Source: a bacterium
GTDB lineage: Bacteria; Patescibacteriota; Microgenomatia; JAADGY01
Direction of reading: 5' to 3'
DNA length: 62,685 bases
Assembly (NCBI GenBank): GCA_027028625.1
Contig: JALVIH010000036.1
Coordinates: 1 to 62,685 of the forward strand
Positions 20,425-56,381 of this stretch are shown here, piece after piece (position 1 is the stretch's first letter; every line of letters starts with the position of its first letter). The notes under the pieces are model-generated. The model made no database searches. It was not told where the DNA came from and saw only the letters and a program-made list of their open reading frames with translations. Position numbers and translations under genes: made by a program.

Positions 20425-21012
20425 ATGCTTGATTTAAGTTACTTAATTCCCTCAGCCATTGCTGTTGGTTCAACTAATCCAGTCAAGATTAATGCTGTCA
20501 AAACAATCCTGGACAAACTAACTCCTAATCAAATTACTATCCTATCCACCGAGGTAGAGTCGGATGTTTCCCATCAACCTCGATCAGATAAAGAAACCCG
20601 CCAAGGAGCTATCAACCGAGCTCTTAAGGCTCTGGAACATATCCCTAGAGCTGAATGGGGGATAGGCCTAGAGGGCGGAGTTAGAGACATTAAATACAAC
20701 TATCAAGGTAAGGAAAAAGAAGAACTAATCGAAGTAGCTTGGTGTGCTATAACCGACAGGCAGGGTAACCTTGCTCTCGGCGGCGGGGCAGAATTTCAAC
20801 TACCGAAATTAATTCGTCAAAAATTAAAAGCCGGTGGCGAGCTTGGGCCCATTATGGATGAACTTCTTAACGACCACGATGTCAAGAAAAAGGAAGGGGC
20901 CATTGGCACCCTCTCAGCTAACCTTCTGACTCGCCAGGGCATCTACGAACAGTTAGTCAAGTTAGCTCTGACTAAATTCATCAGCCTAACTAAACAGCCT
21001 CAGTGGTGGTGA
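20425..21012 (+). CDS. inosine/xanthosine triphosphatase-like NTPase (DUF84/YjjX family)
   Basis: N-terminal IAVGSTNPVKINAVK with acidic/His motifs typical of YjjX. TATAAT at 20414-20419 lies 5 nt before the ATG. Confidence 0.65.
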   Translation: MLDLSYLIPSAIAVGSTNPVKINAVKTILDKLTPNQITILSTEVESDVSHQPRSDKETRQGAINRALKALEHIPRAEWGIGLEGGVRDIKYNYQGKEKEELIEVAWCAITDRQGNLALGGGAEFQLPKLIRQKLKAGGELGPIMDELLNDHDVKKKEGAIGTLSANLLTRQGIYEQLVKLALTKFISLTKQPQWW

Positions 21013-21567
21013 TAAAATCTGGAACTAGGAACTAGGTTAGAAAATAACAAATCATAAATACCAAGTTCTAAACAAATCCTAAATCCTAAACTCTAATATC
21101 TAAACAAATCCTAAATTCAAATGACCCAAATTCTAAACCTTGTTTCTTGGGTCACCCTGAACGAGCCGTCAGGCGAAGTGAAGGCCCCCCTTCGGTAGGG
21201 GTAAAATCTAGCGAGCGGAGCGAGTGCAAGGATTAGCACCAACGTTCAGAAACACATACATGCGTCTCCGGCTAGACCCCGACAAGTCGGGATGACATGG
21301 AAAAAAGGAAACATGAATTCTTCTCTCTGAGTCATTCTGACCCTCCGGGGCGGAGGGGAAGAATCTAGCGAAGCGCTCTTATTGGTATCTTGTTTGAAAT
21401 TTGATAATTGGAACTTGTTTGAAAATTGGTCATTTTTAACCTAGTTCTTAGTTCCATTTGTGTCCTTGGAATTTATGTTTTAGTGCTTTCTTGCCAAGTT
21501 CTAAGTTCTGAGTTCTGAGTTCCAATAACTAAGTTCCAAGCTCCAAGTTCTAAGTTCTATTTCCAAT
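21013..21567. repeat. mosaic palindromic intergenic cassette A
   Basis: Left GGAACTAGGAACTAGG at 21021-21036, arm-core-arm hairpin at 21151-21296, a truncated second unit from 21331, and a right 9x heptamer array at 21496-21558. Confidence 0.9.
21496..21558. repeat. tandem heptamer array, 9 units (AAGTTCT AAGTTCT GAGTTCT GAGTTCC AATAACT AAGTTCC AAGCTCC AAGTTCT AAGTTCT)
   Basis: Strict 7-nt periodicity read directly from the sequence. Arrays of the complementary GGAACTW orientation bound the left side of cassettes. Confidence 0.9.
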
Positions 21568-22515
21568 TCACTCCTTCAAGGAATGAAATTTCTGATATAC
21601 GTCCCGAAGGCGCTTGTTGGTTACATGGGTGTAAATCTGGGTAGTAGCCAGATTCTTATGCCCCAACAATTCTTGGACAGCCCGGATATCAGCTCCCTGG
21701 GAAAGAAGGTCAGTAGCGAAACTATGCCGCAGACTATGGGGAGTTATCTTCTTGGCCAAACCAGCTTGAAGAGCGTACCTACGGACTATTCTCTCCACAC
21801 TCCGAACTGACAAACGCATCTTCTCCCCTCGATTATAAGGAATAACTTTGCCTCTATGACGAATAAAAAGAGGCTTCCAATCATCTTCCCGCATAAGGAG
21901 GTACTTCTTCAACCACTCTAAGGCTCGAGGCGATAAAAAAACTAAGCGAACCTTCCGCCCTTTGCCAACCACACTAAACTCTCCGGTCTTGAGATCTACA
22001 CTGTCCCTATCTAAACCAACTAACTCTGAAACCCGCAGTCCAGAAGAAAATAAAACCTCTAAAATTGCCTTGTCCCGCACCCCAGATAAAGTAGTAACAT
22101 CCGGACCAGCCAGGAGTTTCTCCACTTCATCTAAACTCAAAAAATTGGGGAGGTGAGGCGATGTTTTGGCTAAAGTTATCTGATCCGGAGTTATCTTAGG
22201 CTTCACTCCCTTTTTAATTAGGAAGCGGAGCAGTCCTCGAAGGGCGATTAAGTAGTAATTCTGAGTCTTAGCGGAAAGAAAAATCTTCCGCCGTTCGTCC
22301 AACATCTTATTAGATAAAAATACCCGGTAAGAATCAATATTCTCCAAGGTGAGATTAGCTAGGGTGGGGGTGTTTACTTTTTTTTCTCCAACTAAAAAAT
22401 CATAAAACTCTCCTAAGTAAGCGCGATAATTCCTTACTGTAAGAGGAGAGTAATTCCGCTCAACTTGAAGATACAAGACAAACTGTTCTATCCAGTAATC
22501 CAACTCTTTAATCAT
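21568..22515 (-). CDS. xerC: tyrosine site-specific recombinase XerC/XerD family
   Basis: C-terminal RHSFATDLLSQGADIRAVQELLGHKNLATTQIYTHV (R-H-R-Y catalytic set) and an N-terminal SAM-like domain. TATAAT at 22521-22526 (minus) lies 5 nt before the ATG. Confidence 0.9.
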   Translation of the reverse strand: MIKELDYWIEQFVLYLQVERNYSPLTVRNYRAYLGEFYDFLVGEKKVNTPTLANLTLENIDSYRVFLSNKMLDERRKIFLSAKTQNYYLIALRGLLRFLIKKGVKPKITPDQITLAKTSPHLPNFLSLDEVEKLLAGPDVTTLSGVRDKAILEVLFSSGLRVSELVGLDRDSVDLKTGEFSVVGKGRKVRLVFLSPRALEWLKKYLLMREDDWKPLFIRHRGKVIPYNRGEKMRLSVRSVERIVRRYALQAGLAKKITPHSLRHSFATDLLSQGADIRAVQELLGHKNLATTQIYTHVTNKRLRDVYQKFHSLKE

Positions 22516-22988
22516 ATCTCATTATATAATCCCCTGAAGGGTGAAGAACTTGGAATAATTGGAACTAGGAACTAGGGGGTTGATTAATTTTAAATTTGAA
22601 ATTTTTAACCTGCCTGCCGGCAGGCAGGTTTTTAATCAAATCAAATTTTAAAATCTTAATATCAAAATTCAATGCCTTCTTTATCGGGTCATCCTGAGGA
22701 GCTGGGGCGACGAAGCCCCCCTTCGGTAGGGGTAAAATCTAGCGAGCAGTAGCGAGCGCAAGGATTAGTACTCAGGCTTGAGTTTACTCTCGTGCGCCTT
22801 CGGCTAGATTCTTCGTCACTTTGGCTCCTCAGGATGACACGAAGAATTATACCCATTATAAAGGTCTAATTACTCGAAAGACAAAAACAAGCACTCACCG
22901 CTCCCGGCTGCTAAAAACACCACCATCAATCGCCTTACATTTTTAGCTTATAATAAAAGAGTATCGCCTGTCAAGAACAAGGGAAATT
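22516..22988. repeat. mosaic palindromic intergenic cassette B
   Basis: Heptamers at 22546-22577, a 24-nt perfect palindrome at 22607-22630, and an arm-core-arm hairpin at 22688-22838. Confidence 0.9.
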
Positions 22989-31863: not shown

Positions 31864-33153
31864 TTATATCTGTTTCCAACGTAAGGGCAAACACCTAGTT
31901 TTAAAATTAACCAATACTTCGTCATTTGGCTTAAAAGTATAATATCCGCTTAATCCACCTGCTGTTTTTTCCTGTCCCCACTGAGCCAGGGAAAAATTAT
32001 CTGTATAGCTATCTATATGAGTTCTGCCCCAATCCTCTCTCCCCGCCCGTTTAGCTATCTCTTCCCATTCTTCCTTTTCTTTTTCTGGAACTACTAATCG
32101 CAAATGGCGTAATGGTATTTCGCAACCACGTGGGTTTTCTTCTCTGTAGCTATCCGCAAAAATATGGATCTCGGGTGTAGAATTATGACCTGTAGTATTA
32201 GGAAAATAAACAAATTTATAATCTTCTGCTAATTGAGGAATCGTAGTTGTAAAAAATATAATAGGAATACTCTCTCTAGCAAATTTACCATAAGGCATAA
32301 CACTACCAAATGAAAAAGAAATATGTGGTAAAACCCTCCCCTCATATTTATCTTTAATAGGCGCAGTTTGAATTACTTTTCCACCCATTTCTCTCTGTCG
32401 GAGAGCGGATTTTAAAGAACCTTCTTCAATAACCCGTCTAACTATTTCTTCATCTCCAGGAACATGGATCAAAGGCGTTTCCTGAAACCTTTTACACCAC
32501 TCAAAAAAATTTCTTCTATATCCTTCCCATGCCCAATCTTCATTGTTAATTCTTTTAAGAAACCTAATAATCAACTGATCATCGTCATCACCTAATACTT
32601 TATATAACCTTTGTATCTCTTGAGATAATTTATTCAATTCCTTTATTTGCTGTTCTGAAGGAACAATAATTGGAGGATGTCGATAAATTCCTTCCCCATG
32701 CACATCTAAATTAAAAAAGCGATTTTGAAGATCAGTCACTTTATGCGACGGCCAATAACTCCATTCTTCATCTGAAAGGAATTTTCTCAACCGTTTCCAA
32801 AAAATAAAATTAAGACGACTTTGTAATTGTTTTAATACTTCTTCCTTTCTTCCCCTAGTAAGAAATAACTTTTCTTTCCAACTCCTTGGATGAATTTCCC
32901 TTTTTAACAAAATTCCAACAGCTCTTTTTAGAATGGCGTCAGAAAAGCCATTTCCCCATAACTTCTCTGCAATATTTTCCACTTCTTTTTTACCTACCTG
33001 GGTATTATAATCAGGAGACAAAAATGGTTCAAAAATAGCTCTAATCCTCTGTACAAAAAGCTCCGCCGGCATACTAAGCGGCTCCGATCCAATTAAAAGT
33101 TCTATCTTTTCCTCCCCTTTTACTTCCTCTGGGTATTCACTCCTTTTTATCAT
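31864..33153 (-). CDS. hypothetical protein (429 aa)
   Basis: Long uninterrupted ORF with balanced composition. No recognisable motif. Confidence 0.65.
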   Translation of the reverse strand: MIKRSEYPEEVKGEEKIELLIGSEPLSMPAELFVQRIRAIFEPFLSPDYNTQVGKKEVENIAEKLWGNGFSDAILKRAVGILLKREIHPRSWKEKLFLTRGRKEEVLKQLQSRLNFIFWKRLRKFLSDEEWSYWPSHKVTDLQNRFFNLDVHGEGIYRHPPIIVPSEQQIKELNKLSQEIQRLYKVLGDDDDQLIIRFLKRINNEDWAWEGYRRNFFEWCKRFQETPLIHVPGDEEIVRRVIEEGSLKSALRQREMGGKVIQTAPIKDKYEGRVLPHISFSFGSVMPYGKFARESIPIIFFTTTIPQLAEDYKFVYFPNTTGHNSTPEIHIFADSYREENPRGCEIPLRHLRLVVPEKEKEEWEEIAKRAGREDWGRTHIDSYTDNFSLAQWGQEKTAGGLSGYYTFKPNDEVLVNFKTRCLPLRWKQI

Positions 33154-33719
33154 TACCTTAAATTTTACACCGATAATATCTTTTCCTCCATTTCATCCTG
33201 AGTTATCGGGATGTAGCCAAAGGCGCGGGGGATTGGAACTTGGAGCTTGGAATTCAGAACCTAGTCGAAAAGAAGAAGACTTAGCCAGTCTAGAGTAAGT
33301 AAGAGCTTAGAAAAAACTTGGATACCAGTACCTTTGCGCTCGCTTCCGCTCGCTAGATCCCGACAAGTCGGGATGACATGGAGAAATAGGTATGCCTTCT
33401 CCTCGAGTCATCCTGAACGAGCCGTCAGGCGAAGTGAAGGATCTAGCCGAAGGCGCACGAGAGTAAACCAAAGCCTGAGTGCTAATCCTTGCGCTCGCTA
33501 TTGCTCGCTAGATCCTTCGTCGCTCTGGCTCCTCAGGATGACTTCCTAAAAAAGGTTTTTATTTGGTTGTTGGAATTTATGTTTTAGTGCTTTCTTGCCA
33601 AGTTCTAAGTTCTAAGTTCCAAGCTTTAAGATCATCACACTCTCGAAGAGTGATAAATCACACTTCGGGAGAGTGATTTATTCAAGTTCCAAGTTCCGAT
33701 TACCTAGTTCCTAGTTCCT
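33154..33719. repeat. mosaic palindromic intergenic cassette C
   Basis: Heptamers at 33231-33262, a variant core at 33288-33377, an arm-core-arm hairpin at 33407-33542, heptamers at 33598-33630, a 46-bp palindrome at 33631-33682, and heptamers at 33684-33719. Confidence 0.9.
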
Positions 33720-34373
33720 TCAATACCCTTCGCTGTGAATGTCTATGGAATTAAGGCCGGCCTGGCGGACGAGTTGGCCAATCTGGCGGACAAAGGACAA
33801 AGAACCAACGATATAATAAACCGTCTCATCTGTTAGCCAGGAAGAGAGATAATCCTCAATATGACCATTCTTAATCCCAGCTACTTTCTGCCGAGACAAA
33901 ACCGGCTGGTAATCAGCATACTTCCGAAATAAATTAGCCCAAACCAGATATTCCTGGTAACGTTCCTGATGAACTACTCGTTGTTTTCTCCTCTTTTTAA
34001 ACTCTAGGACTAAACTCCTCACCCCAGCCACGCCGCATCCTGCCACCAAATAAGTAATCCTAGGCAGATCTTGAAAATGACCGCTATGGTGGACTCCCAT
34101 TGGCCCAGAAATCTCCACCTCACTCCCTATCTCTTTATTAAAAAGATGATTGGACATCTTCCCTCCAGGCACCCGGCGGATATAAAACATTAAGAAGTCT
34201 TCACTTGGATGGGAAGATAAAGTATAAGCCCGGCGAACAAACTGACCATTAATAGTGTCGCCTATCATCACAAACTGGCCAGGATGATAAGTAAAACCTG
34301 CCGGCCGATTGGTAGTCAAGATATACTTCTCCTCCCCTACCGGCCGGCGGTCTTGAATAATTACTTTACTCAT
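33720..34373 (-). CDS. ferredoxin-NADP reductase-type FAD/NAD(P)-binding oxidoreductase (217 aa)
   Basis: RRAYTLSS (RxYS FAD motif), GGKMSNHL, ISGPMG, LVAGCGVAGV, and a terminal aromatic residue (…HSEGY). Confidence 0.8.
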   Translation of the reverse strand: MSKVIIQDRRPVGEEKYILTTNRPAGFTYHPGQFVMIGDTINGQFVRRAYTLSSHPSEDFLMFYIRRVPGGKMSNHLFNKEIGSEVEISGPMGVHHSGHFQDLPRITYLVAGCGVAGVRSLVLEFKKRRKQRVVHQERYQEYLVWANLFRKYADYQPVLSRQKVAGIKNGHIEDYLSSWLTDETVYYIVGSLSFVRQIGQLVRQAGLNSIDIHSEGY

Positions 34374-35045
34374 CTACTTTTTCTTAGGAGTTAGTTTCTT
34401 ATGGCAAAACCACCAATCAAAGCAGTCGTACTTTTTACTCCTCTCCCCTGCTGTCTTAACATCCTCAGCTGGCGGAACAATACCTTCATCTTTAATCAAT
34501 TCGTTATTCGGCCAGTTGGCTGGTAAAGCCACTTTCTGAGCATCGCTTGTCTGCAAAGCTTTGACAGCCCGAAGAATCTCATCTACATTTCTCCCAATCT
34601 CTTGGGGGTAAAAGAGAATAAGGCGTATTACTCCCTTCGGATCGATGATGAAAACTGCCCGAACTGTATTAGTCCCTTTGGCTGGATGAAGCATTCCCAA
34701 ACTGTCAGCTACCCACCCCATATCATCAGCAATTATGGGAAAAGGAATCGTAACTCCTAACTTCTCTTCAATCCACTCTACCCACTTAATATGGGAAAAA
34801 ACTTGGTCAATTGACAAACCCAAGAGTTCGGTATTTAATTTTTTAAACTGGGAATAACGCTTGGCGAAGGCAACAAACTCAGTAGTGCAAACCGGAGTAA
34901 AGTCAGCTGGATGGGAGAATAACACCAACCATTTGCCTTTGTAATCATCAGGTAAGACCTTTTTGCCATGAGTGGTTTTCACCTCCATAAAAGGAAATTG
35001 GTCACCAATTAAAGGAAATTCATTTATTACTATCTCATCCTCCAT
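34374..35045 (-). CDS. peroxiredoxin (Prx6/archaeal-type)
   Basis: Peroxidatic site [12 protein letters not shown] and a C-terminal CFDWWFC pair of Cys. GGGAGG Shine-Dalgarno upstream. Confidence 0.92.
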
Positions 35046-35481
35046 CTCTGCCTCCCTATCAATTTTATTAATTTATTAACTACCATTAGTTTAACACAAA
35101 ACGGAACTTGGTTATCAGAACTTAGAACTCGAATAAATCACTCTCCCGAAGTGTGATTTATCACACTTCGGGAGCGTGATGAACTTGGAGCTTGGAACTT
35201 AGAACTCAGTAAAAATAACCAATTATCAATGATCAATTTTCAGACAAACTCCAAGCACCAATGATCCAACTTCTAAACCTTGTCTATCAAGTCATTCTGA
35301 GTGTTAACGAAGAATCTAGCGAGCAGCGCGAGCGCAAGGATTAGCACCCAAGTTTGAGAGCACTCTCATGCGCCTTCGGCTAGATTCCGACAAGTCGGGA
35401 TGACCCGAGAGGAGGTTGTACTTTATAACTTTATGAACTTTATGAACTTTCTAACTTCATAAACTAAGTTCTAATCTCGTG
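35046..35481. repeat. mosaic palindromic intergenic cassette D
   Basis: Heptamers at 35101-35130, a 46-bp palindrome at 35131-35181, heptamers at 35181-35208, an arm-core-arm unit at 35290-35403, and a ctttatgaa-type repeat at 35420-35474. Confidence 0.9.
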
Positions 35482-35650: not shown

Positions 35651-36159
35651 ATCCGAACTCATTTATTTTACTACACCCCAGGAATAAATCCTAAACCTGC
35701 CTGTCGGCAGACGGGTCCGAAATCCTAAGCTCCAAACCCCCCTTCGGTAGGGGCAGGCAAATCCTAAATTCTAAACTCTTCCGCCACGGCGGATCCGCCT
35801 TAGGCGGAAAATCCTAATGATCAAAATATAAGACTTCTTAAGAGATGTCATCCTGAGGAGCCAGAGCGACGAAGGCCCCCCTTTGGTAGGGGTAAAATCT
35901 AGCGAAGCGCAAAGTCGCTGGCATCCAAGCTTAAGTAGACACTCATGCGCCTATCGGCTAGATCCTTCACTTCGCCTCTCGGCTCGTTCAGGATGACTCC
36001 CTAAACAGAGTTTTGATTATTGGGATTTGGAATTTGTTTGGATACTTGGAATTTGCTATTTGGCGCTTTCCTACCAAGTTCCAAGCTCCAAGTTCATCAC
36101 TCTCCCGAAGAGTGATAAATCACACTTCGGGAGAGTGATTTATTCCAAGTTCTAAGTTC
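35651..36159. repeat. mosaic palindromic intergenic cassette E
   Basis: A degenerate GC palindrome at 35694-35717, C(UUCG)G stems, an arm-core-arm hairpin at 35847-35997, heptamers at 36074-36095, a 46-bp palindrome at 36095-36144, and heptamers at 36144-36166. Confidence 0.9.
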
Positions 36160-36900
36160 CTAGTTCCGATTGCCTGACAATCTCTTAAGGACAGCTTCAA
36201 GGTCTGGAGGTAAAGGAGAAGTAAAGGTAACCTCTTTTTTACTTGAAGGATGGCGAAAGGTTAAGGAGGCGGCATGAAGAAAGATACGTGGCGTCAGGTC
36301 AGAGGTAGTTTGGAATTTCTTCCTCCCACTATAAAATGAGTCGCCCACCAAAGGATGCCCAAGATAACGAAAATGGACTCTCACCTGATGAGTCCGCCCC
36401 GTTTGAGGAAAGACTTCAACCAAAGAGTACCACTTTCCTTGATAAGAAAAACTTTCTTTCAAACGATATTTTGTTTTGGACGGCCGGCCACCAATAAAAA
36501 CAGTGAAGCGCCGCCGATTAAAGGGGTTGCGTTGAATCGGAGCATCAATCACTCCTTCTTCCGGCACTGAACCATGAACTAAGGCCAAATACTTCTTTTT
36601 TACTCTCCGTTCTTTGAACTCAGCTAACAAAAACTCTAAAGCCGACGGAGTCCGCCCAATAAGAAGAACTCCGCTAGTATCCTTATCTAAACGATGAGCC
36701 AAACCAGACCGCTGAGCGAACACCTCATTCCCCTCTCCTGGTTTTACCCAACCTTCTTCTTCTAACCAGTCTTGGAGTGTTTTTGTCTTCACCGACTCTG
36801 CCCGATTGACCACCAATCCAGCTGGTTTATCAACTACCAAGATATAATCATCCCAATAGATTGGCCGAATGTTTAACTTACTTTCTTCACTAGCCACCAT
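36160..36900 (-). CDS. RluA/RluD-family pseudouridine synthase (no S4 domain)
   Basis: Catalytic HRLDKDTSGVLL and GRTHQVRVH motifs. Confidence 0.88.
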   Translation of the reverse strand: MVASEESKLNIRPIYWDDYILVVDKPAGLVVNRAESVKTKTLQDWLEEEGWVKPGEGNEVFAQRSGLAHRLDKDTSGVLLIGRTPSALEFLLAEFKERRVKKKYLALVHGSVPEEGVIDAPIQRNPFNRRRFTVFIGGRPSKTKYRLKESFSYQGKWYSLVEVFPQTGRTHQVRVHFRYLGHPLVGDSFYSGRKKFQTTSDLTPRIFLHAASLTFRHPSSKKEVTFTSPLPPDLEAVLKRLSGNRN

Positions 36901-41315: not shown

Positions 41316-41969
41316 TTACTTCTGTCTTTCTAAAACAACTACCTGAGTCGGCTGATCTTTTTCTATTGTTTTGAGAACTAATTGAGACTGTGTTACCTCC
41401 TCTTTCTTTACTCCCATTTCTTTAAGAAAAGCATCTAAGGGTTGGATTTTGGCAAATTTATCACTATGTTCGGTTGTTCGATAATGCATAGGAACAACAT
41501 AATGAGGTTCTAACTGATCAATGACTTTAATCACATCCTCGAGAGGTAAGGTGTAAAAGCCACCAACTGGAATAAAAAGAACATCTACCTGACCAATCTC
41601 CTCAACCAATTTATCCTCGAGAGGATGGCCTAAATCACCTAAATGAAGAAGAGAAAGATTATCCTCCACCAACTGATAAATGGTATTCACCCCTCTCTCT
41701 TGGCCTTTTTTCTTATCATGATAAGTTGGCCAACCATTAATTCTCACTTGATGAAATTCATACTCGCCCGGCCCGTTTATTAACATAAAATCACCTTTCA
41801 CTCCCTCGATGTAAGAATGGTCAAAATGATTATGGGTCACTAAAACTAAGTCAGCTTCTACCTTCTTCATCTTAAAGCCTACACTTGGAGGAAAGGGGTC
41901 AATAACCGCCCGCAGTTTAGGAAAACGGAAATAAAAAGCCGAATGTCCAAGCCACTGTACCTTGATCAT
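41316..41969 (-). CDS. metallo-beta-lactamase-fold hydrolase (UPF0173-like)
   Basis: THNHFDH metal-binding motif. 217 aa. Confidence 0.8.
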   Translation of the reverse strand: MIKVQWLGHSAFYFRFPKLRAVIDPFPPSVGFKMKKVEADLVLVTHNHFDHSYIEGVKGDFMLINGPGEYEFHQVRINGWPTYHDKKKGQERGVNTIYQLVEDNLSLLHLGDLGHPLEDKLVEEIGQVDVLFIPVGGFYTLPLEDVIKVIDQLEPHYVVPMHYRTTEHSDKFAKIQPLDAFLKEMGVKKEEVTQSQLVLKTIEKDQPTQVVVLERQK

Positions 41970-42482
41970 ATTCCTATTTTACAACACTCGTGGGTTGCTG
42001 AAGGGAAACTGGAACTAGGAACTAAGAACTAGGAGCTAGGTTAGAAAAAAGCACTAAATCCGAAACCTGCCTGCCGGCAGGCAGGTTCGAAATCCTAAGC
42101 TCCAAATAAATTCTAATCTCTAAATCCTAAATTTTAAACAACTAAAAAGGAGTCATTCTGAGGAGTCAGAGCGACGAAGAATCTAGCGAGCGATAGCGAG
42201 CGCAAGGATTAGCTCTCAAGTTTGGGTTTACTCTCGTGCGCCTATCGGCTAGATCCTTCACCTCGCCTATCGGCTCGTTCAGGATGACTCGAGGAGGAGG
42301 CATACCTCTCTCTCCATGTCATCCCGACTTGTCGGGATGACACAATACTAAACCCCAAGCACCAAATTCCAAGTATCCAAACCCCCCTTCGGTAGGGGCA
42401 GGCAAATTCCAATACCAATGATCAAAATATTAAGAGGAGGAATTAAAAATTAAGAATTAAAAATTTCAAATTTTAAACTCCC
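41970..42482. repeat. mosaic palindromic intergenic cassette F
   Basis: Heptamers at 42009-42042, a 24-nt palindrome at 42064-42087, an arm-core-arm hairpin at 42152-42288, a perfect 24-nt palindrome gtcatcccgacttgtcgggatgac at 42318-42341, and an A/T module at 42441-42477. Confidence 0.9.
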
Positions 42483-46596: not shown

Positions 46597-47072
46597 AACT
46601 TAGAACTCAGAACTTGGAGCTTGGAGCTTGGTACTCAGTCGGAAAGAAGAAAACTTAGGCAGTCTAGAGTGAGTAAGAGCTTAGAAAAAACTTGACTGCC
46701 AATACCTTTTGCGCTCGCTTACCGCTCGCTAGATCCCGACAAGTCGGGATGACGCGGGGGGCAGGAAAACAGCTTCTTAGGATGACACAGAAGCACGACC
46801 CTCTCTTCGAGTCATTCTGAGCCCTGCGAAGAATCTAGCCGATAGGCGCACGAGTGTGCTCCTAAATGTTGGTGCCAATACTTTTGCGCTACGCTAGATC
46901 CTTCGTCGCCTTGGCTCCTCAGGATGACCCGAGAAAGAAGATTTTGGATTTTGGTAATTAAGATTTTGATATTGTTTAGAATTTAGGATTTAGAGTTTAG
47001 TGCTTCCTTTAACCTAGTTCCAAGTTCCAATTCCCTCTTGCCTCTTACCACTATTTTTTGCTAAGCTAAGGT
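46597..47072. repeat. mosaic palindromic intergenic cassette G
   Basis: Heptamers at 46594-46637, a variant core shared with cassette C at 46640-46753, an arm-core-arm hairpin at 46811-46928, and heptamers at 47011-47034. Confidence 0.9.
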
Positions 47073-51689: not shown

Positions 51690-52220
51690 AACTTCTTATT
51701 TTAACAAAGAAATCAACTTTCAGCTACAAGAAATCAGAACTTGGAACTTGGAGCTTGGAACTCGGTAAAAAAATGACCAATTATCAATGATCAATTTTCA
51801 AACAAATTCCAAGCACCAATAATCAAAGTTCAAAACCTTTTTAGGGGGTCATTCTGAGCCCCAGCGAAGAATCTAGCGAAGCGCAAAGTTGCTGGCATCC
51901 AAGCTTAAGTAGACACTCGTGCGCCTATCGGCTAGATTTTACCCCTACCGAAGGGGGGCTTCGTCGCCTCAGCTCCTCAGGATGACTCAGTATTAAATTC
52001 CAAGCACCAAATTCCAAGAAACAAACCCCCCTTCGGTAGGGGTAAAATCTAGCCGATAGGCGCATGAGAGTGAACTCAAGCGTTGGAGCTGATCCTTGCG
52101 CTCGCTCCGCTCGCTAGATCCCGACAAGTCGGGATGAGGCGGGGGGACAAGAAAGCAGCTTCTTAGGATAATGGGGAAACAAGCCAAAAAAATACCGATA
52201 GAGGCTATAATAAAGGAGTT
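51690..52220. repeat. mosaic palindromic intergenic cassette H
   Basis: Heptamers at 51734-51765, an arm-core-arm hairpin at 51848-51986, and a second inverted core unit at 52026-52136. Confidence 0.9.
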
Positions 52221-54949: not shown

Positions 54950-55232
54950 TTATTGAAGCTGGAACTAGGAGCTAGGTTAAAAAATAACCAAATTCCAAAT
55001 TCCAAGAAACAAACAAGGTCTAAATCTCAATGTTCCAAACTTAACTTAATTTTCATTATTTTTGATCATTGGTTATTGTTATTTGTTTGTATCCTTGGAG
55101 TTTGATACTTGGAATTTAATACTGAGTCATCCTGAACGAGCCGCCAGACGAAGTGAGGACCCCCTTCGGTAGAGGTAAAATCTAGGCTGAAGGCGCAGGG
55201 GTTGGAACTTAATCTTGAAGCCTAGAACTTAT
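54950..55232. repeat. mosaic palindromic intergenic cassette I (truncated)
   Basis: Heptamers at 54959-54977, inverted A/T modules, and a left arm plus partial core at 55126-55200. Heptamers at 55202-55231 are in the same orientation as the left end. Confidence 0.85.
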
Positions 55233-56009: not shown

Positions 56010-56381
56010 ATAGTATATTATATATAAATTGTCAAAAGGGAGTCATTCTCAGAAACCAGAGCGACGAAGGATCTAGCAAAACGCAAAGATTTTGAATCCT
56101 ACACCTAGGAATACACTCATGCGCCTCCGGCTAGATTCTTCCCCTCCGCTTCGGGGGGTCAGAATGACACAAAAGACAAAGTTTTGGAGCTAATAGCAAA
56201 AATGTGTTGATTTTTTGCTATTAGCTCAAGTTTTGGATTTTGGTATTTGTGTTTTGGTGCTTTCTTACTGAGTTCCAAGTTCCGAGTTCCAAGTGCTGTT
56301 TTATTTGAAAATTGGTCATTGATAATTGGTCATTTTTACTGAGTTCTATTTCCCCCAGTGTTGTAAAATTAGGTATTGCTA
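56010..56381. repeat. mosaic palindromic intergenic cassette J
   Basis: An arm-core-arm hairpin at 56052-56168, a hairpin gctaatagcaaaaa...tttttgctattagc at 56189-56226, and heptamers at 56269-56296. Confidence 0.9.

Follow-up and report, generated by a model that had tools for sequence, protein, structure and literature searches.

The window analyzed here, a 62,685-nucleotide contig (JALVIH010000036.1 of assembly GCA_027028625.1) from a bacterium of the patescibacterial class Microgenomatia, carries many copies of an arm-core-arm repeat, of which the copy at positions 35847-35997 is our focal unit. We found that this unit of 115 to 150 bases is a pair of inward-facing, GTC-tagged hairpin repeats set around a conserved palindromic spacer, and we read it as a noncoding DNA element, neither a gene nor an RNA gene. 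We consider it probable, if by no means assured, that the units form a mosaic like the Neisseria intergenic mosaic elements (NIMEs) and the bacterial interspersed mosaic elements (BIMEs), made up of single-stranded DNA (ssDNA) hairpin targets of an Ssn-type nuclease and acting at the DNA level.

The recurrence reported by an earlier, sequence-only reading of the window is real, and the focal copy lies exactly where that reading had placed it. The decamer GTCATYCTGA, with up to one mismatch, occurs 32 times in the window, compared with 5.8 ± 2.4 occurrences expected from 100 dinucleotide-preserving shuffles, none of which reached 32. The whole assembly (724,557 bp in 54 contigs) yielded about 190 arms, along with 72 units of clean arm-core-arm form. 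The genome of a sister species in this genus, 711 kb long and about 83% identical in long alignments, holds 90 clean units, i.e., 1.25-fold more, and exceeds ours in pattern-matched arms about 2.5-fold. Every unit is intergenic, a few apparently in-gene cases being spurious open reading frames (ORFs) that read through cassettes, and the units alone make up 1.3 to 1.7% of the DNA.

Arms are self-contained tagged hairpins

Each unit had been described as bounded by terminal inverted repeats (TIRs) of about 30 bp. What we observed instead is that each arm is a hairpin in its own right, so that a unit carries two independent tagged hairpins, mostly of unlike types, rather than the halves of one long repeat. 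An arm reads, in order, GTC, a 5-nt stem strand ATYCY, GA, a variable looped helix, GA, the partner strand RGRAT, and a tail C-TAG(C). The GTC stands ahead of the stem in essentially all arms and every stem opens with AT; the base 5' of GTC shows no conservation (A 62, C 31, G 38, T 26; n = 157). About eight arm types can be told apart by their inner helix, and an additional inserted hairpin, CCCCCCTTCGGTAGGGG, is present in some arms.

The outer stem shows clear covariation. Among 494 simple arms, 95.8% of stem cells are Watson-Crick pairs, and four covarying versions of the stem occur: ATTCT/AGAAT (184 arms), ATCCT/AGGAT (183), ATCCC/GGGAT (43), and ATTCC/GGAAT (6). Of the 494, 422 have the tandem GA/GA loop; 51 D-type arms carry Watson-Crick GA/TC in its place. 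Arm D alone has a plain 8-bp stem, whereas the other types combine a 5-bp stem, the tandem G·A loop, and a second helix. Three other readings of the arm were considered and set aside: a hammerhead-like reading of CUGANGA...GAA was ruled out by the lack of a stem I between GUC and CUGA and of an Rfam match, a kink-turn was ruled out because there is no 3-nt bulge and the GA/GA loop is a symmetric tandem sheared pair, and the signature of an integron attC-like site does not fit.

The focal unit illustrates this layout. Its left arm (35847-35903, forward strand), of type A plus the extra hairpin, begins with the GTC tag (35847-35849) and the 5' stem strand ATCCT (35850-35854), which pairs with AGG...AT. 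The tandem G·A loop sets GA at 35855-35856 opposite GA at 35871-35872 and encloses the inner helix GGAGCCAGAGCGAC (35857-35870); the optional inserted hairpin CCCCCCTTTGGTAGGGG (35876-35892) and the tail ATCTAGC (35897-35903) follow. The core (35904-35956, forward strand) is of the short form, 53 nt long (GAAGCGCAAAGTCGCTGGCATCCAAGCTTAAGTAGACACTCATGCGCCTATCG), with the mini-hairpins GC-GAA-GC and GCC-GATA-GGC, one at each end, and a variable center. The right arm (35957-35997, reverse strand) is of type B, its minus strand reading GTCATCCTGAACGAGCCGAGAGGCGAAGTGAAGGATCTAGC.

Cores form one family and arm pairing is constrained

Two core sequence types had been distinguished in the window. The variation is real, but the cores make up a single family in three forms: a short form of 51 to 53 nt that opens with a GC-GAA-GC mini-hairpin, a long form of 58 to 62 nt that opens with GCGAGC-GGA-GCGAGC, and an expanded form of about 134 nt with an insert of about 80 to 100 nt at its center. 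Together with the arm tails, the core presents two inverted repeats, CTAGC/GCTAG and GCGCA/TGCGC, which are nested and invariant and enclose a variable center. Since the arms are symmetric modules, the orientation of a core relative to its arms has no meaning of its own, and the invertible core of the sequence-only reading does not call for any inversion.

The tags face outward in all clean dimers (72 in this genome and 90 in its sister), the arrangement called HH, and these dimers share one conserved spacer family. The mixing of arms between the left and right sides, which had been read as swapping, is real but constrained rather than random. Pairs of the same type are depleted, with 1 of 72 observed against 11.5 expected in this genome and 6 of 90 against 14.1 in the sister, and arm type is associated with the core end (P = 4 × 10⁻⁴), arm D, for example, being found at the CCGAAGG end in a ratio of 20:2. 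Folded as ssDNA, both strands of the focal unit were far more structured than shuffled sequences (z = -4.6 and -6.5).

Sharp boundaries and unbiased placement

We compared all copies, each with 300-bp flanks, against one another and tallied where the high-scoring segment pairs (HSPs) ended. Similarity between copies begins exactly at the G of GTCAT, with 471 HSP ends at this position here and 998 in the sister genome; most other positions nearby had about 20 to 60, apart from smaller shoulders that reached about 225 in the 3 nt just outside. The unit ends are therefore true element boundaries.

Such constant ends, repeated at many dispersed intergenic sites, are what would be expected of a MITE (miniature inverted-repeat transposable element), a nonautonomous transposon moved in trans by a transposase that reads GTCAT...ATGAC, as the sequence-only reading had suggested. 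The searches made at the unit ends do not bear out a MITE in the strict sense. Direct matches of 2 to 8 bp flanking the units, which would mark target-site duplication (TSD), occurred only at chance level, and the two supposed TIRs are mostly of different types. Neither a Y1_Tnp gene of the REP-associated tyrosine transposase (RAYT) kind, REP being a repetitive extragenic palindrome, nor a gene of the IS110/Piv type, the type of the dRS3 integrase, was found in this genome.

The restriction of units to the spaces between operons, where they occupy 54 of 127 gaps exceeding 200 bp, would also suit an element acting in RNA, be it a bidirectional terminator, a stabilizer of mRNA 3' ends, or a site of RNase processing at the borders of operons. 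Strong folding on both strands agrees with such a role, as do the tandem G·A and GNRA-like loops, which are common RNA motifs, and a passage in PMC3733652 according to which REPs are known to stabilize mRNA. Against it, no unit contains a T-tract, and Rfam returned nothing above threshold except four tRNAs. Units occupy tandem, divergent, and convergent gaps in numbers (32, 16, and 9) proportionally similar to those of all gaps longer than 200 bp (68, 37, and 22), so that divergent gaps, which hold only promoters, have units as often as gap numbers predict. Relative to the direction of the genes, cores are oriented 16:16 in this genome and 17:9 in the sister. This placement in proportion to gap type, together with the lack of an orientation bias, makes an oriented RNA gene or a plain terminator unlikely, and on this point the earlier description of a modular, recombining hairpin element rather than a simple terminator holds. 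Mismatches on the tagged strand likewise show no preference for the wobble pair, with 26 G·T against 55 A·C. Taken with the lack of conserved content at shared sites reported below, these observations lead us to regard an RNA-level role as unlikely.

Content of syntenic sites differs between sister genomes

In 18 of 20 orthologous gaps compared, both this genome and its sister carry arm-bearing cassettes. These cassettes differ in arm types, core form, core orientation, and unit number, and in none of the 20 gaps does a unit of the sister agree with ours in both arm types and core orientation. Of the remaining two gaps, both armless in the sister, one holds an unrelated, mostly unique sequence and the other the flanking modules only. 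At other sites, whole cassettes of 450 to 715 bp are present in only one genome, with the flanking genes contiguous in the other. Presence and absence of this kind would again fit a MITE, but the duplications at the cassette junctions vary from none or 2 bp through 7 bp (GAGGTTT) and about 15 bp to about 57 bp. Such variability is unlike the action of a single transposase and could result from template switching, from recombination, or from deletion between short repeats.

A Y1_Tnp-like gene in the sister, which could be counted in favor of a MITE, lies within another hairpin family. A 1.65-kb insertion (sister contig 42:1929-3582), absent from C11:719-767 of our assembly, contains this 220-amino-acid RAYT-like gene and a 277-amino-acid ORF and is bounded and divided by three copies of the hairpin ACGAGCCCGGCTCGGAAAACCCGGCTCGT, of which the sister has 14 copies and our genome 3. 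The gene and this hairpin likely represent a separate RAYT-REP pair.

The syntenic position and variable content of the arrays invite the proposal that they are domesticated sites for controlling recombination or uptake at operon borders, comparable to NTS and NIME in Neisseria, at which incoming or replicating ssDNA would be cut or recombined and the exchange of neighboring genes promoted or limited. This proposal overlaps with the nuclease-target reading and adds to it an assigned host function, for which Neisseria offers a precedent (PMC11893778, PMC1797815). Differences in gene content do adjoin cassettes. Two segments of the window, 31864-33153 (a 429-amino-acid gene) and 34374-35480 (a 223-amino-acid gene with the adjoining cassette), are absent from the sister's syntenic contig, where the flanking genes and tRNAs abut or have only a cassette between them. 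A third segment (G000 C46:4950-5649 in our genome, corresponding to sister contig 27:22021-22080) is an insertion of a small nucleotidyltransferase-like gene with one unit, flanked by a direct duplication of about 57 bp of the neighboring gene's 3' end. However, large indels do not carry arms significantly more often than other gaps do (17 of 29 large indels, compared with 27 of 35 other gaps; P = 0.18), and a cognate nuclease was not found in our genome. We therefore view an assigned host function as decidedly unlikely, even with the variable surface-like protein described next counted in its favor.

A 9.6-kb contig labeled as part of an Anaerolineae metagenome-assembled genome (JALWAP010000149.1) aligns to our contig C5 with 78.5% identity over 1.3 kb and includes stretches of 97 to 98% identity; it is probably a Microgenomates contig in the wrong bin. 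It holds an orthologous unit with identical arms and orientation. We rejected the idea that this third genome reveals constraint on the unit, because it is a close relative, as the conserved stretches indicate. Also compared with this contig was a 671-amino-acid putative surface protein with a Thr/Pro-rich linker (C5:447-2459) that adjoins a cassette. A segment of its gene (C5 approximately 611-1048) is only 58 to 65% identical between the two contigs and lies between the 97 to 98% stretches, and from its sequence it looks like an imported or diversifying allele.

Arm abundance follows an arm-flanked Ssn-like gene

In Neisseria and in other bacteria, hairpins of this class are the ssDNA targets of small GIY-YIG nucleases called Ssn. 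SsnA of Neisseria is a 94-amino-acid GIY-YIG protein that binds its target, NTS, in single-stranded form alone and makes its cut a few bases upstream; no base matters more to Ssn binding than the C that follows the palindrome, and ssn genes are typically flanked by the NTS/SRM motif (PMC11893778). We surveyed 301 genomes of the class for a generic arm pattern, for Ssn-like genes, and for Y1_Tnp. The arm pattern occurred in 107 of them, against 0 to 1 for a reversed-pattern control. Small GIY-YIG genes of any kind were present in 258 genomes and their mere presence was thus uninformative, for which reason we isolated an arm-flanked subfamily. In arm-rich genomes, the members of this subfamily have arms within about 40 to 60 nt on both sides and encode single-domain proteins of about 95 amino acids. 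We identified them at two loci in genome G228, in G105, and probably in G169, the last judged from arm positions only, its ORF not having been recovered. The three recovered proteins are 52 to 62% identical to one another and about 55 to 60% identical to proteins from several phyla. An arm-flanked protein from Gottesmanbacteria is 93 amino acids long.

The Ssn-like gene was present in 30 of the 37 genomes with at least 10 arms, compared with 57 of the 264 others (odds ratio [OR], 15.6; P = 2 × 10⁻¹²), and this link held in both Y1_Tnp strata (OR, ∼13). The link between Y1_Tnp and arms (OR, 4) dropped to about 2.3 and lost significance once stratified by Ssn. Absence of a related autonomous element from all relatives had been named as part of what would undercut the MITE interpretation. 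Related gene-bearing units, in the form arm-ssn-arm, do exist in the class, and they carry a nuclease rather than a transposase. With the class-wide association of Y1_Tnp gone after Ssn-like genes are accounted for, and with neither a duplication nor a transposase with matching ends at the units themselves, we judge a classical MITE to be very improbable.

The GIY-YIG genes of the genus itself are of a different kind. The only one in our genome is an open frame with internal stops, truncated after about 31 codons, beside a tRNA (C44:9621-9746); this truncated copy (C44:9621-9800) adjoins the same kind of tRNA as its counterparts in the sister. There, two intact small GIY-YIG genes, at contig 26:235-483 and contig 21:3010-3267, encode 83 and 86 amino acids and lie within the segments contig 26:150-545 and contig 21:2930-3330. 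Both begin 3 to 4 nt past a tRNA or tRNA fragment and are bracketed by direct repeats of about 60 nt of a tRNA 3' half, an arrangement that, judged by sequence, resembles a mini-element targeting tRNA genes. The repeat family thus looks either orphaned in this genus or served by a divergent nuclease.

A truncated nuclease gene might suggest that the units are an inert relic, i.e., an old burst of repeats that is decaying and being reshuffled by ordinary homologous recombination without a dedicated enzyme. The cores, only about 65 to 85% alike and with few near-identical pairs, and the many partial units could be read in the same way. Decay is nevertheless hard to reconcile with arm stems that are 95.8% paired and covarying, with the selection of heterodimers, or with a sister genome that exceeds ours in both clean units and pattern-matched arms and has other content at the shared sites, and we give this explanation almost no credence.

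Distribution beyond the genus

With the generic arm pattern, no arms were found in two other species of the same family, which points to acquisition and expansion within the genus. Scanning one genome per prokaryote species with the 17-mer TGCGCCTTCGGCTAGAT, we recovered the composite of an arm, CTAGC, G(A/T)AGC-GCA ... TGCGCC-TTCG, GCTAG, and an arm from Clostridia, Christensenella, Butyrivibrio, Parasutterella, and another Microgenomates genome; single matches elsewhere look like chance. In those other lineages, the composites have shorter, AT-rich centers. The ends of the core are therefore an extended conserved tail of this branch of arms, and only the long center is lineage specific. The possibility that the core is a novelty of the genus, suggested by a search pattern built on the GATAGG variant, was ruled out, as the core ends are shared across phyla.

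A proposed model of nuclease-driven spread

We propose that exposure of a strand, whether in replication, in repair, or in DNA uptake, would let each arm fold separately. An Ssn-type nuclease could then read the GTC tag together with the stem and the C that comes next and nick just outside the unit, and repair, template switching, and recombination at such nicks would copy, swap, and delete modules. Repair and recombination associated with nicks would explain the sharp boundary at the tag, the mosaic of arms, the lack of a target duplication, and the syntenic but fluid arrays. Pairs of unlike arms may persist because long perfect palindromes are unstable. The data show the structure of the units, the stem covariation, the boundaries, the turnover, and the association with Ssn-like genes, and from these we infer the cleavage, the way in which units are copied, and any benefit to the host.

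Several observations weigh against this model. The arm-flanked Ssn-like subfamily was not found in our genome or in the sister, although these assemblies are 88 to 91% complete and loss in gaps is possible; among the 21 genomes with at least 20 arms, our genome, the sister, and one other are the only ones without the gene. The sister's intact GIY-YIG proteins are just 30 to 41% identical to the arm-flanked ones, and their genes are flanked by tRNA fragments rather than arms. The class-wide statistics for arms and Ssn treat genomes as independent and ignore kinship. The unit conserved in the close relative indicates that units are stable over short divergence and that turnover is not rapid on short scales. 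In the core, the paired columns are invariant, so that no covariation could be obtained and core pairing has no support from this source. The published degenerate SRM pattern finds 4 matches per genome, none of them in an arm (reversed control, 0 to 1), and most arms, with their 5-bp stem, G·A loop, extra helix, and sometimes third hairpin, depart from the 8- to 9-bp stem and 4- to 5-nt loop of the CGTC-tagged REPs.

A bolder version of the model can be stated as speculation. The arm-core-arm unit would be a gene-less derivative of arm-ssn-arm elements, and its copying via ssDNA would depend on a GIY-YIG nuclease instead of a transposase; in this genus the unit would have escaped its canonical nuclease and would be served by the divergent tRNA-flanked GIY-YIG genes or by outside enzymes; and the arrays would be joints at which uptake-dependent, ultra-small cells of the candidate phyla radiation (CPR) exchange cassettes and neighboring genes. 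This extended version is unlikely.

Nuclease-driven mobility, if this version is true, would constitute a class parallel to that of RAYTs and REPINs. The description of Ssn nucleases and of the hairpins that they target dates only from 2025 (PMC11893778), and in one CPR class we find that arm abundance follows an arm-flanked Ssn-like gene far better than the tyrosine transposase. What is new here is a branch of the hairpin class in which the arms are G·A-bulged and the tail is extended (CTAGC, a GNA mini-hairpin, and GCA); the published pattern misses this branch, which spans CPR, Firmicutes, and Betaproteobacteria. Our literature search yielded no description of such repeats in CPR/Patescibacteria, and searches with sequence strings gave unrelated primers or nothing. 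The two arm-richest genomes sampled lack the canonical nuclease and thereby offer a natural test of whether the repeats depend on it.

Units and cassettes in the window

All nine full copies listed by the sequence-only reading exist, two of them with corrected coordinates. Besides the focal unit, these are 21151-21296 (arm B plus extra hairpin, long core in plus orientation, arm D); 22688-22838 (arm A plus extra hairpin, long core in plus orientation, arm A), the sole homodimer of the 72 clean units; 33407-33542 (arm B, long core in minus orientation, arm A); 35291-35404, previously given as 35290-35403 (arm F, long core in plus orientation, arm D); 42152-42288 (arm A, long core in plus orientation, arm B); 46811-46928 (arm C, short core in minus orientation, arm A); 51848-51986 (arm C, short core in plus orientation, arm A plus extra hairpin); and 56042-56168, previously given as 56052-56168 (an A-like arm, GTCATTCTCA, short core in plus orientation, arm E).

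The five copies that had been called truncated are also real, but they are a heterogeneous set. At 21331-21369 (forward strand) a solo arm E is followed by the core stub GAAGCGC, and at 55126-55207 (forward strand) arm B with the extra hairpin is followed by a truncated core. The copies noted at 33288 and 46640 are pieces of units whose core has the insert of about 80 to 100 nt. The first lies within an expanded-core unit at 33192-33377 (degenerate D-like arm, 134-nt core with central insert, arm D); the second belongs to a remnant at 46640-46753 that has no left arm and ends in arm D (46728-46753). The copy noted at 52026 is a unit without the outer left hairpin (52023-52138), consisting of an extra hairpin and tail, a long core in minus orientation, and a degenerate arm D that reads CTCAT for GTCAT. 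In addition, an isolated perfect palindrome, GTCATCCCGACTTGTCGGGATGAC (42318-42341), represents an arm-D hairpin with the tag on both strands and is connected to the unit at 42152-42288 by a purine/pyrimidine linker hairpin (42289-42317).

The units are the centers of larger nested palindromic cassettes, which extend over 21012-21150, 21370-21568, 33543-33720, 35045-35290, 35651-35846, 35998-36160, 41969-42151, and similar gaps. The unit flanks are themselves recurrent modules, reused on either side as reverse complements. Among the modules are 7-nt periodic arrays, with GGAACTW... mirrored by ...WAGTTCC and AAATCCT... mirrored by ...AGGATTT, as well as CCTGCCTGCCGGCAGGCAGG hairpins and ATCACTCTCCCGAAGAGTGAT doublets (35137-35180, 36096-36139, and 33640-33683). 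A second type of TIR, AGYCYTACCYAMTCAAAAATCGG, closes some other cassettes.

Cassettes also have practical consequences. At C5:9564-9908 in our assembly and on several contigs of the sister, they give open frames of 96 to 114 codons with peptides such as 'VILNEPSGEVKDLA', 'SLRMT', and 'VIPTCRDLA', and such frames, spurious ORFs of the form 'VILNEPSGEVKDLA...LRMT', are likely sources of false "hypothetical proteins" in annotation. The repeats moreover break assemblies, many contig ends of the sister lying inside them.

Comparison with known repeat systems

The element differs from MITEs in lacking a TSD, in pairing arms of unlike types, and in having gene-bearing relatives that carry a nuclease. 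It shares with the BIMEs and REPINs of E. coli and Pseudomonas (PMC3116915, PMC2817692) the inverted pairs of tagged hairpins, the typed linkers, the mosaic combinations of hairpin types, and a proposed spread by way of ssDNA hairpins. Unlike theirs, however, its tag is GTC rather than GTAG, and no RAYT is flanked by its arms.

In NIMEs, inverted dRS3 repeats flank units of 50 to 150 bp, some with 5-bp terminal inverted repeats, and the arrays are syntenic between strains, variable in number and content, and built from more than 100 spacer families (Bentley et al. 2007, PLoS Genet 3:e23, PMC1797815). Similarly, the arms described here flank cores of 51 to 62 nt, and of up to 134 nt, with CTAGC/GCTAG as the 5-bp terminal repeats, and their arrays lie at syntenic intergenic sites with content that varies between relatives (18 of 20 gaps, none matching). 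NIME-like arrays, once thought specific to Neisseria, are thus present in a 0.72-Mb genome. In contrast to NIMEs, there is a single spacer family, which occurs in two or three lengths, the arrays are short (1 to 3 units) and nested in further palindromic layers, and they come without a dRS3-specific phage recombinase of the IS110/Piv type. The dRS3 consensus ATTCCCNNNNNNNNGGGAAT is not matched, the nearest arm being ATCCCGACTTGTCGGGAT.

The CGTC-tagged REPs, a class that takes in Neisseria dRS3 and Rickettsia RPE-4/-6, have an unpaired tag, a stem that starts with A-T pairs, a short tail, and no dedicated transposase. They occur mostly as HH dimers, often heterodimers, with conserved spacers of 20 to 100 bp and possible small stem-loops at the spacer ends; their families have an 8- to 9-bp stem, a 4- to 5-nt loop, and the tail consensus CCA, and tag variants such as TGTC are allowed (Di Nocera, De Gregorio & Rocco 2013, BMC Genomics 14:522, PMC3733652). 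Our units resemble them in the unpaired GTC tag, the A-T/T-A start of the stem, the short unpaired tail, the outside position of the tags, the extragenic location, the frequency of heterodimers, the conserved spacer with stem-loops at its ends, and the lack of a dedicated transposase. They differ in that the base ahead of GTC is not C and in that the arm tail CTAG(C) corresponds to the CYRG of NTS rather than to CCA, and their host, a CPR bacterium, belongs to a group outside the coverage of PMC3733652.

A further correspondence is with NTS itself, CGTCATTCCCGCGMAVGCGGGAATCYRG (Chenal et al. 2025, Nat Commun 16:2388, PMC11893778). Like NTS, the arm is an oriented hairpin, GTCAT...stem...ATC-YRG, present in hundreds of copies per genome. 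Arm D, NGTC-ATCCCGAC-TT-GTCGGGAT-CTAG, matches NTS, CGTC-ATTCCCGC-GMAV-GCGGGAAT-CYRG, position by position, including the C after the stem. Because the SRM pattern misses the arms, and because of their G·A loop and second helix, we do not count them as members of the published families; by their sequence features, we regard the arms as forming a variant branch of the CGTC-tagged REP/NTS-SRM class.

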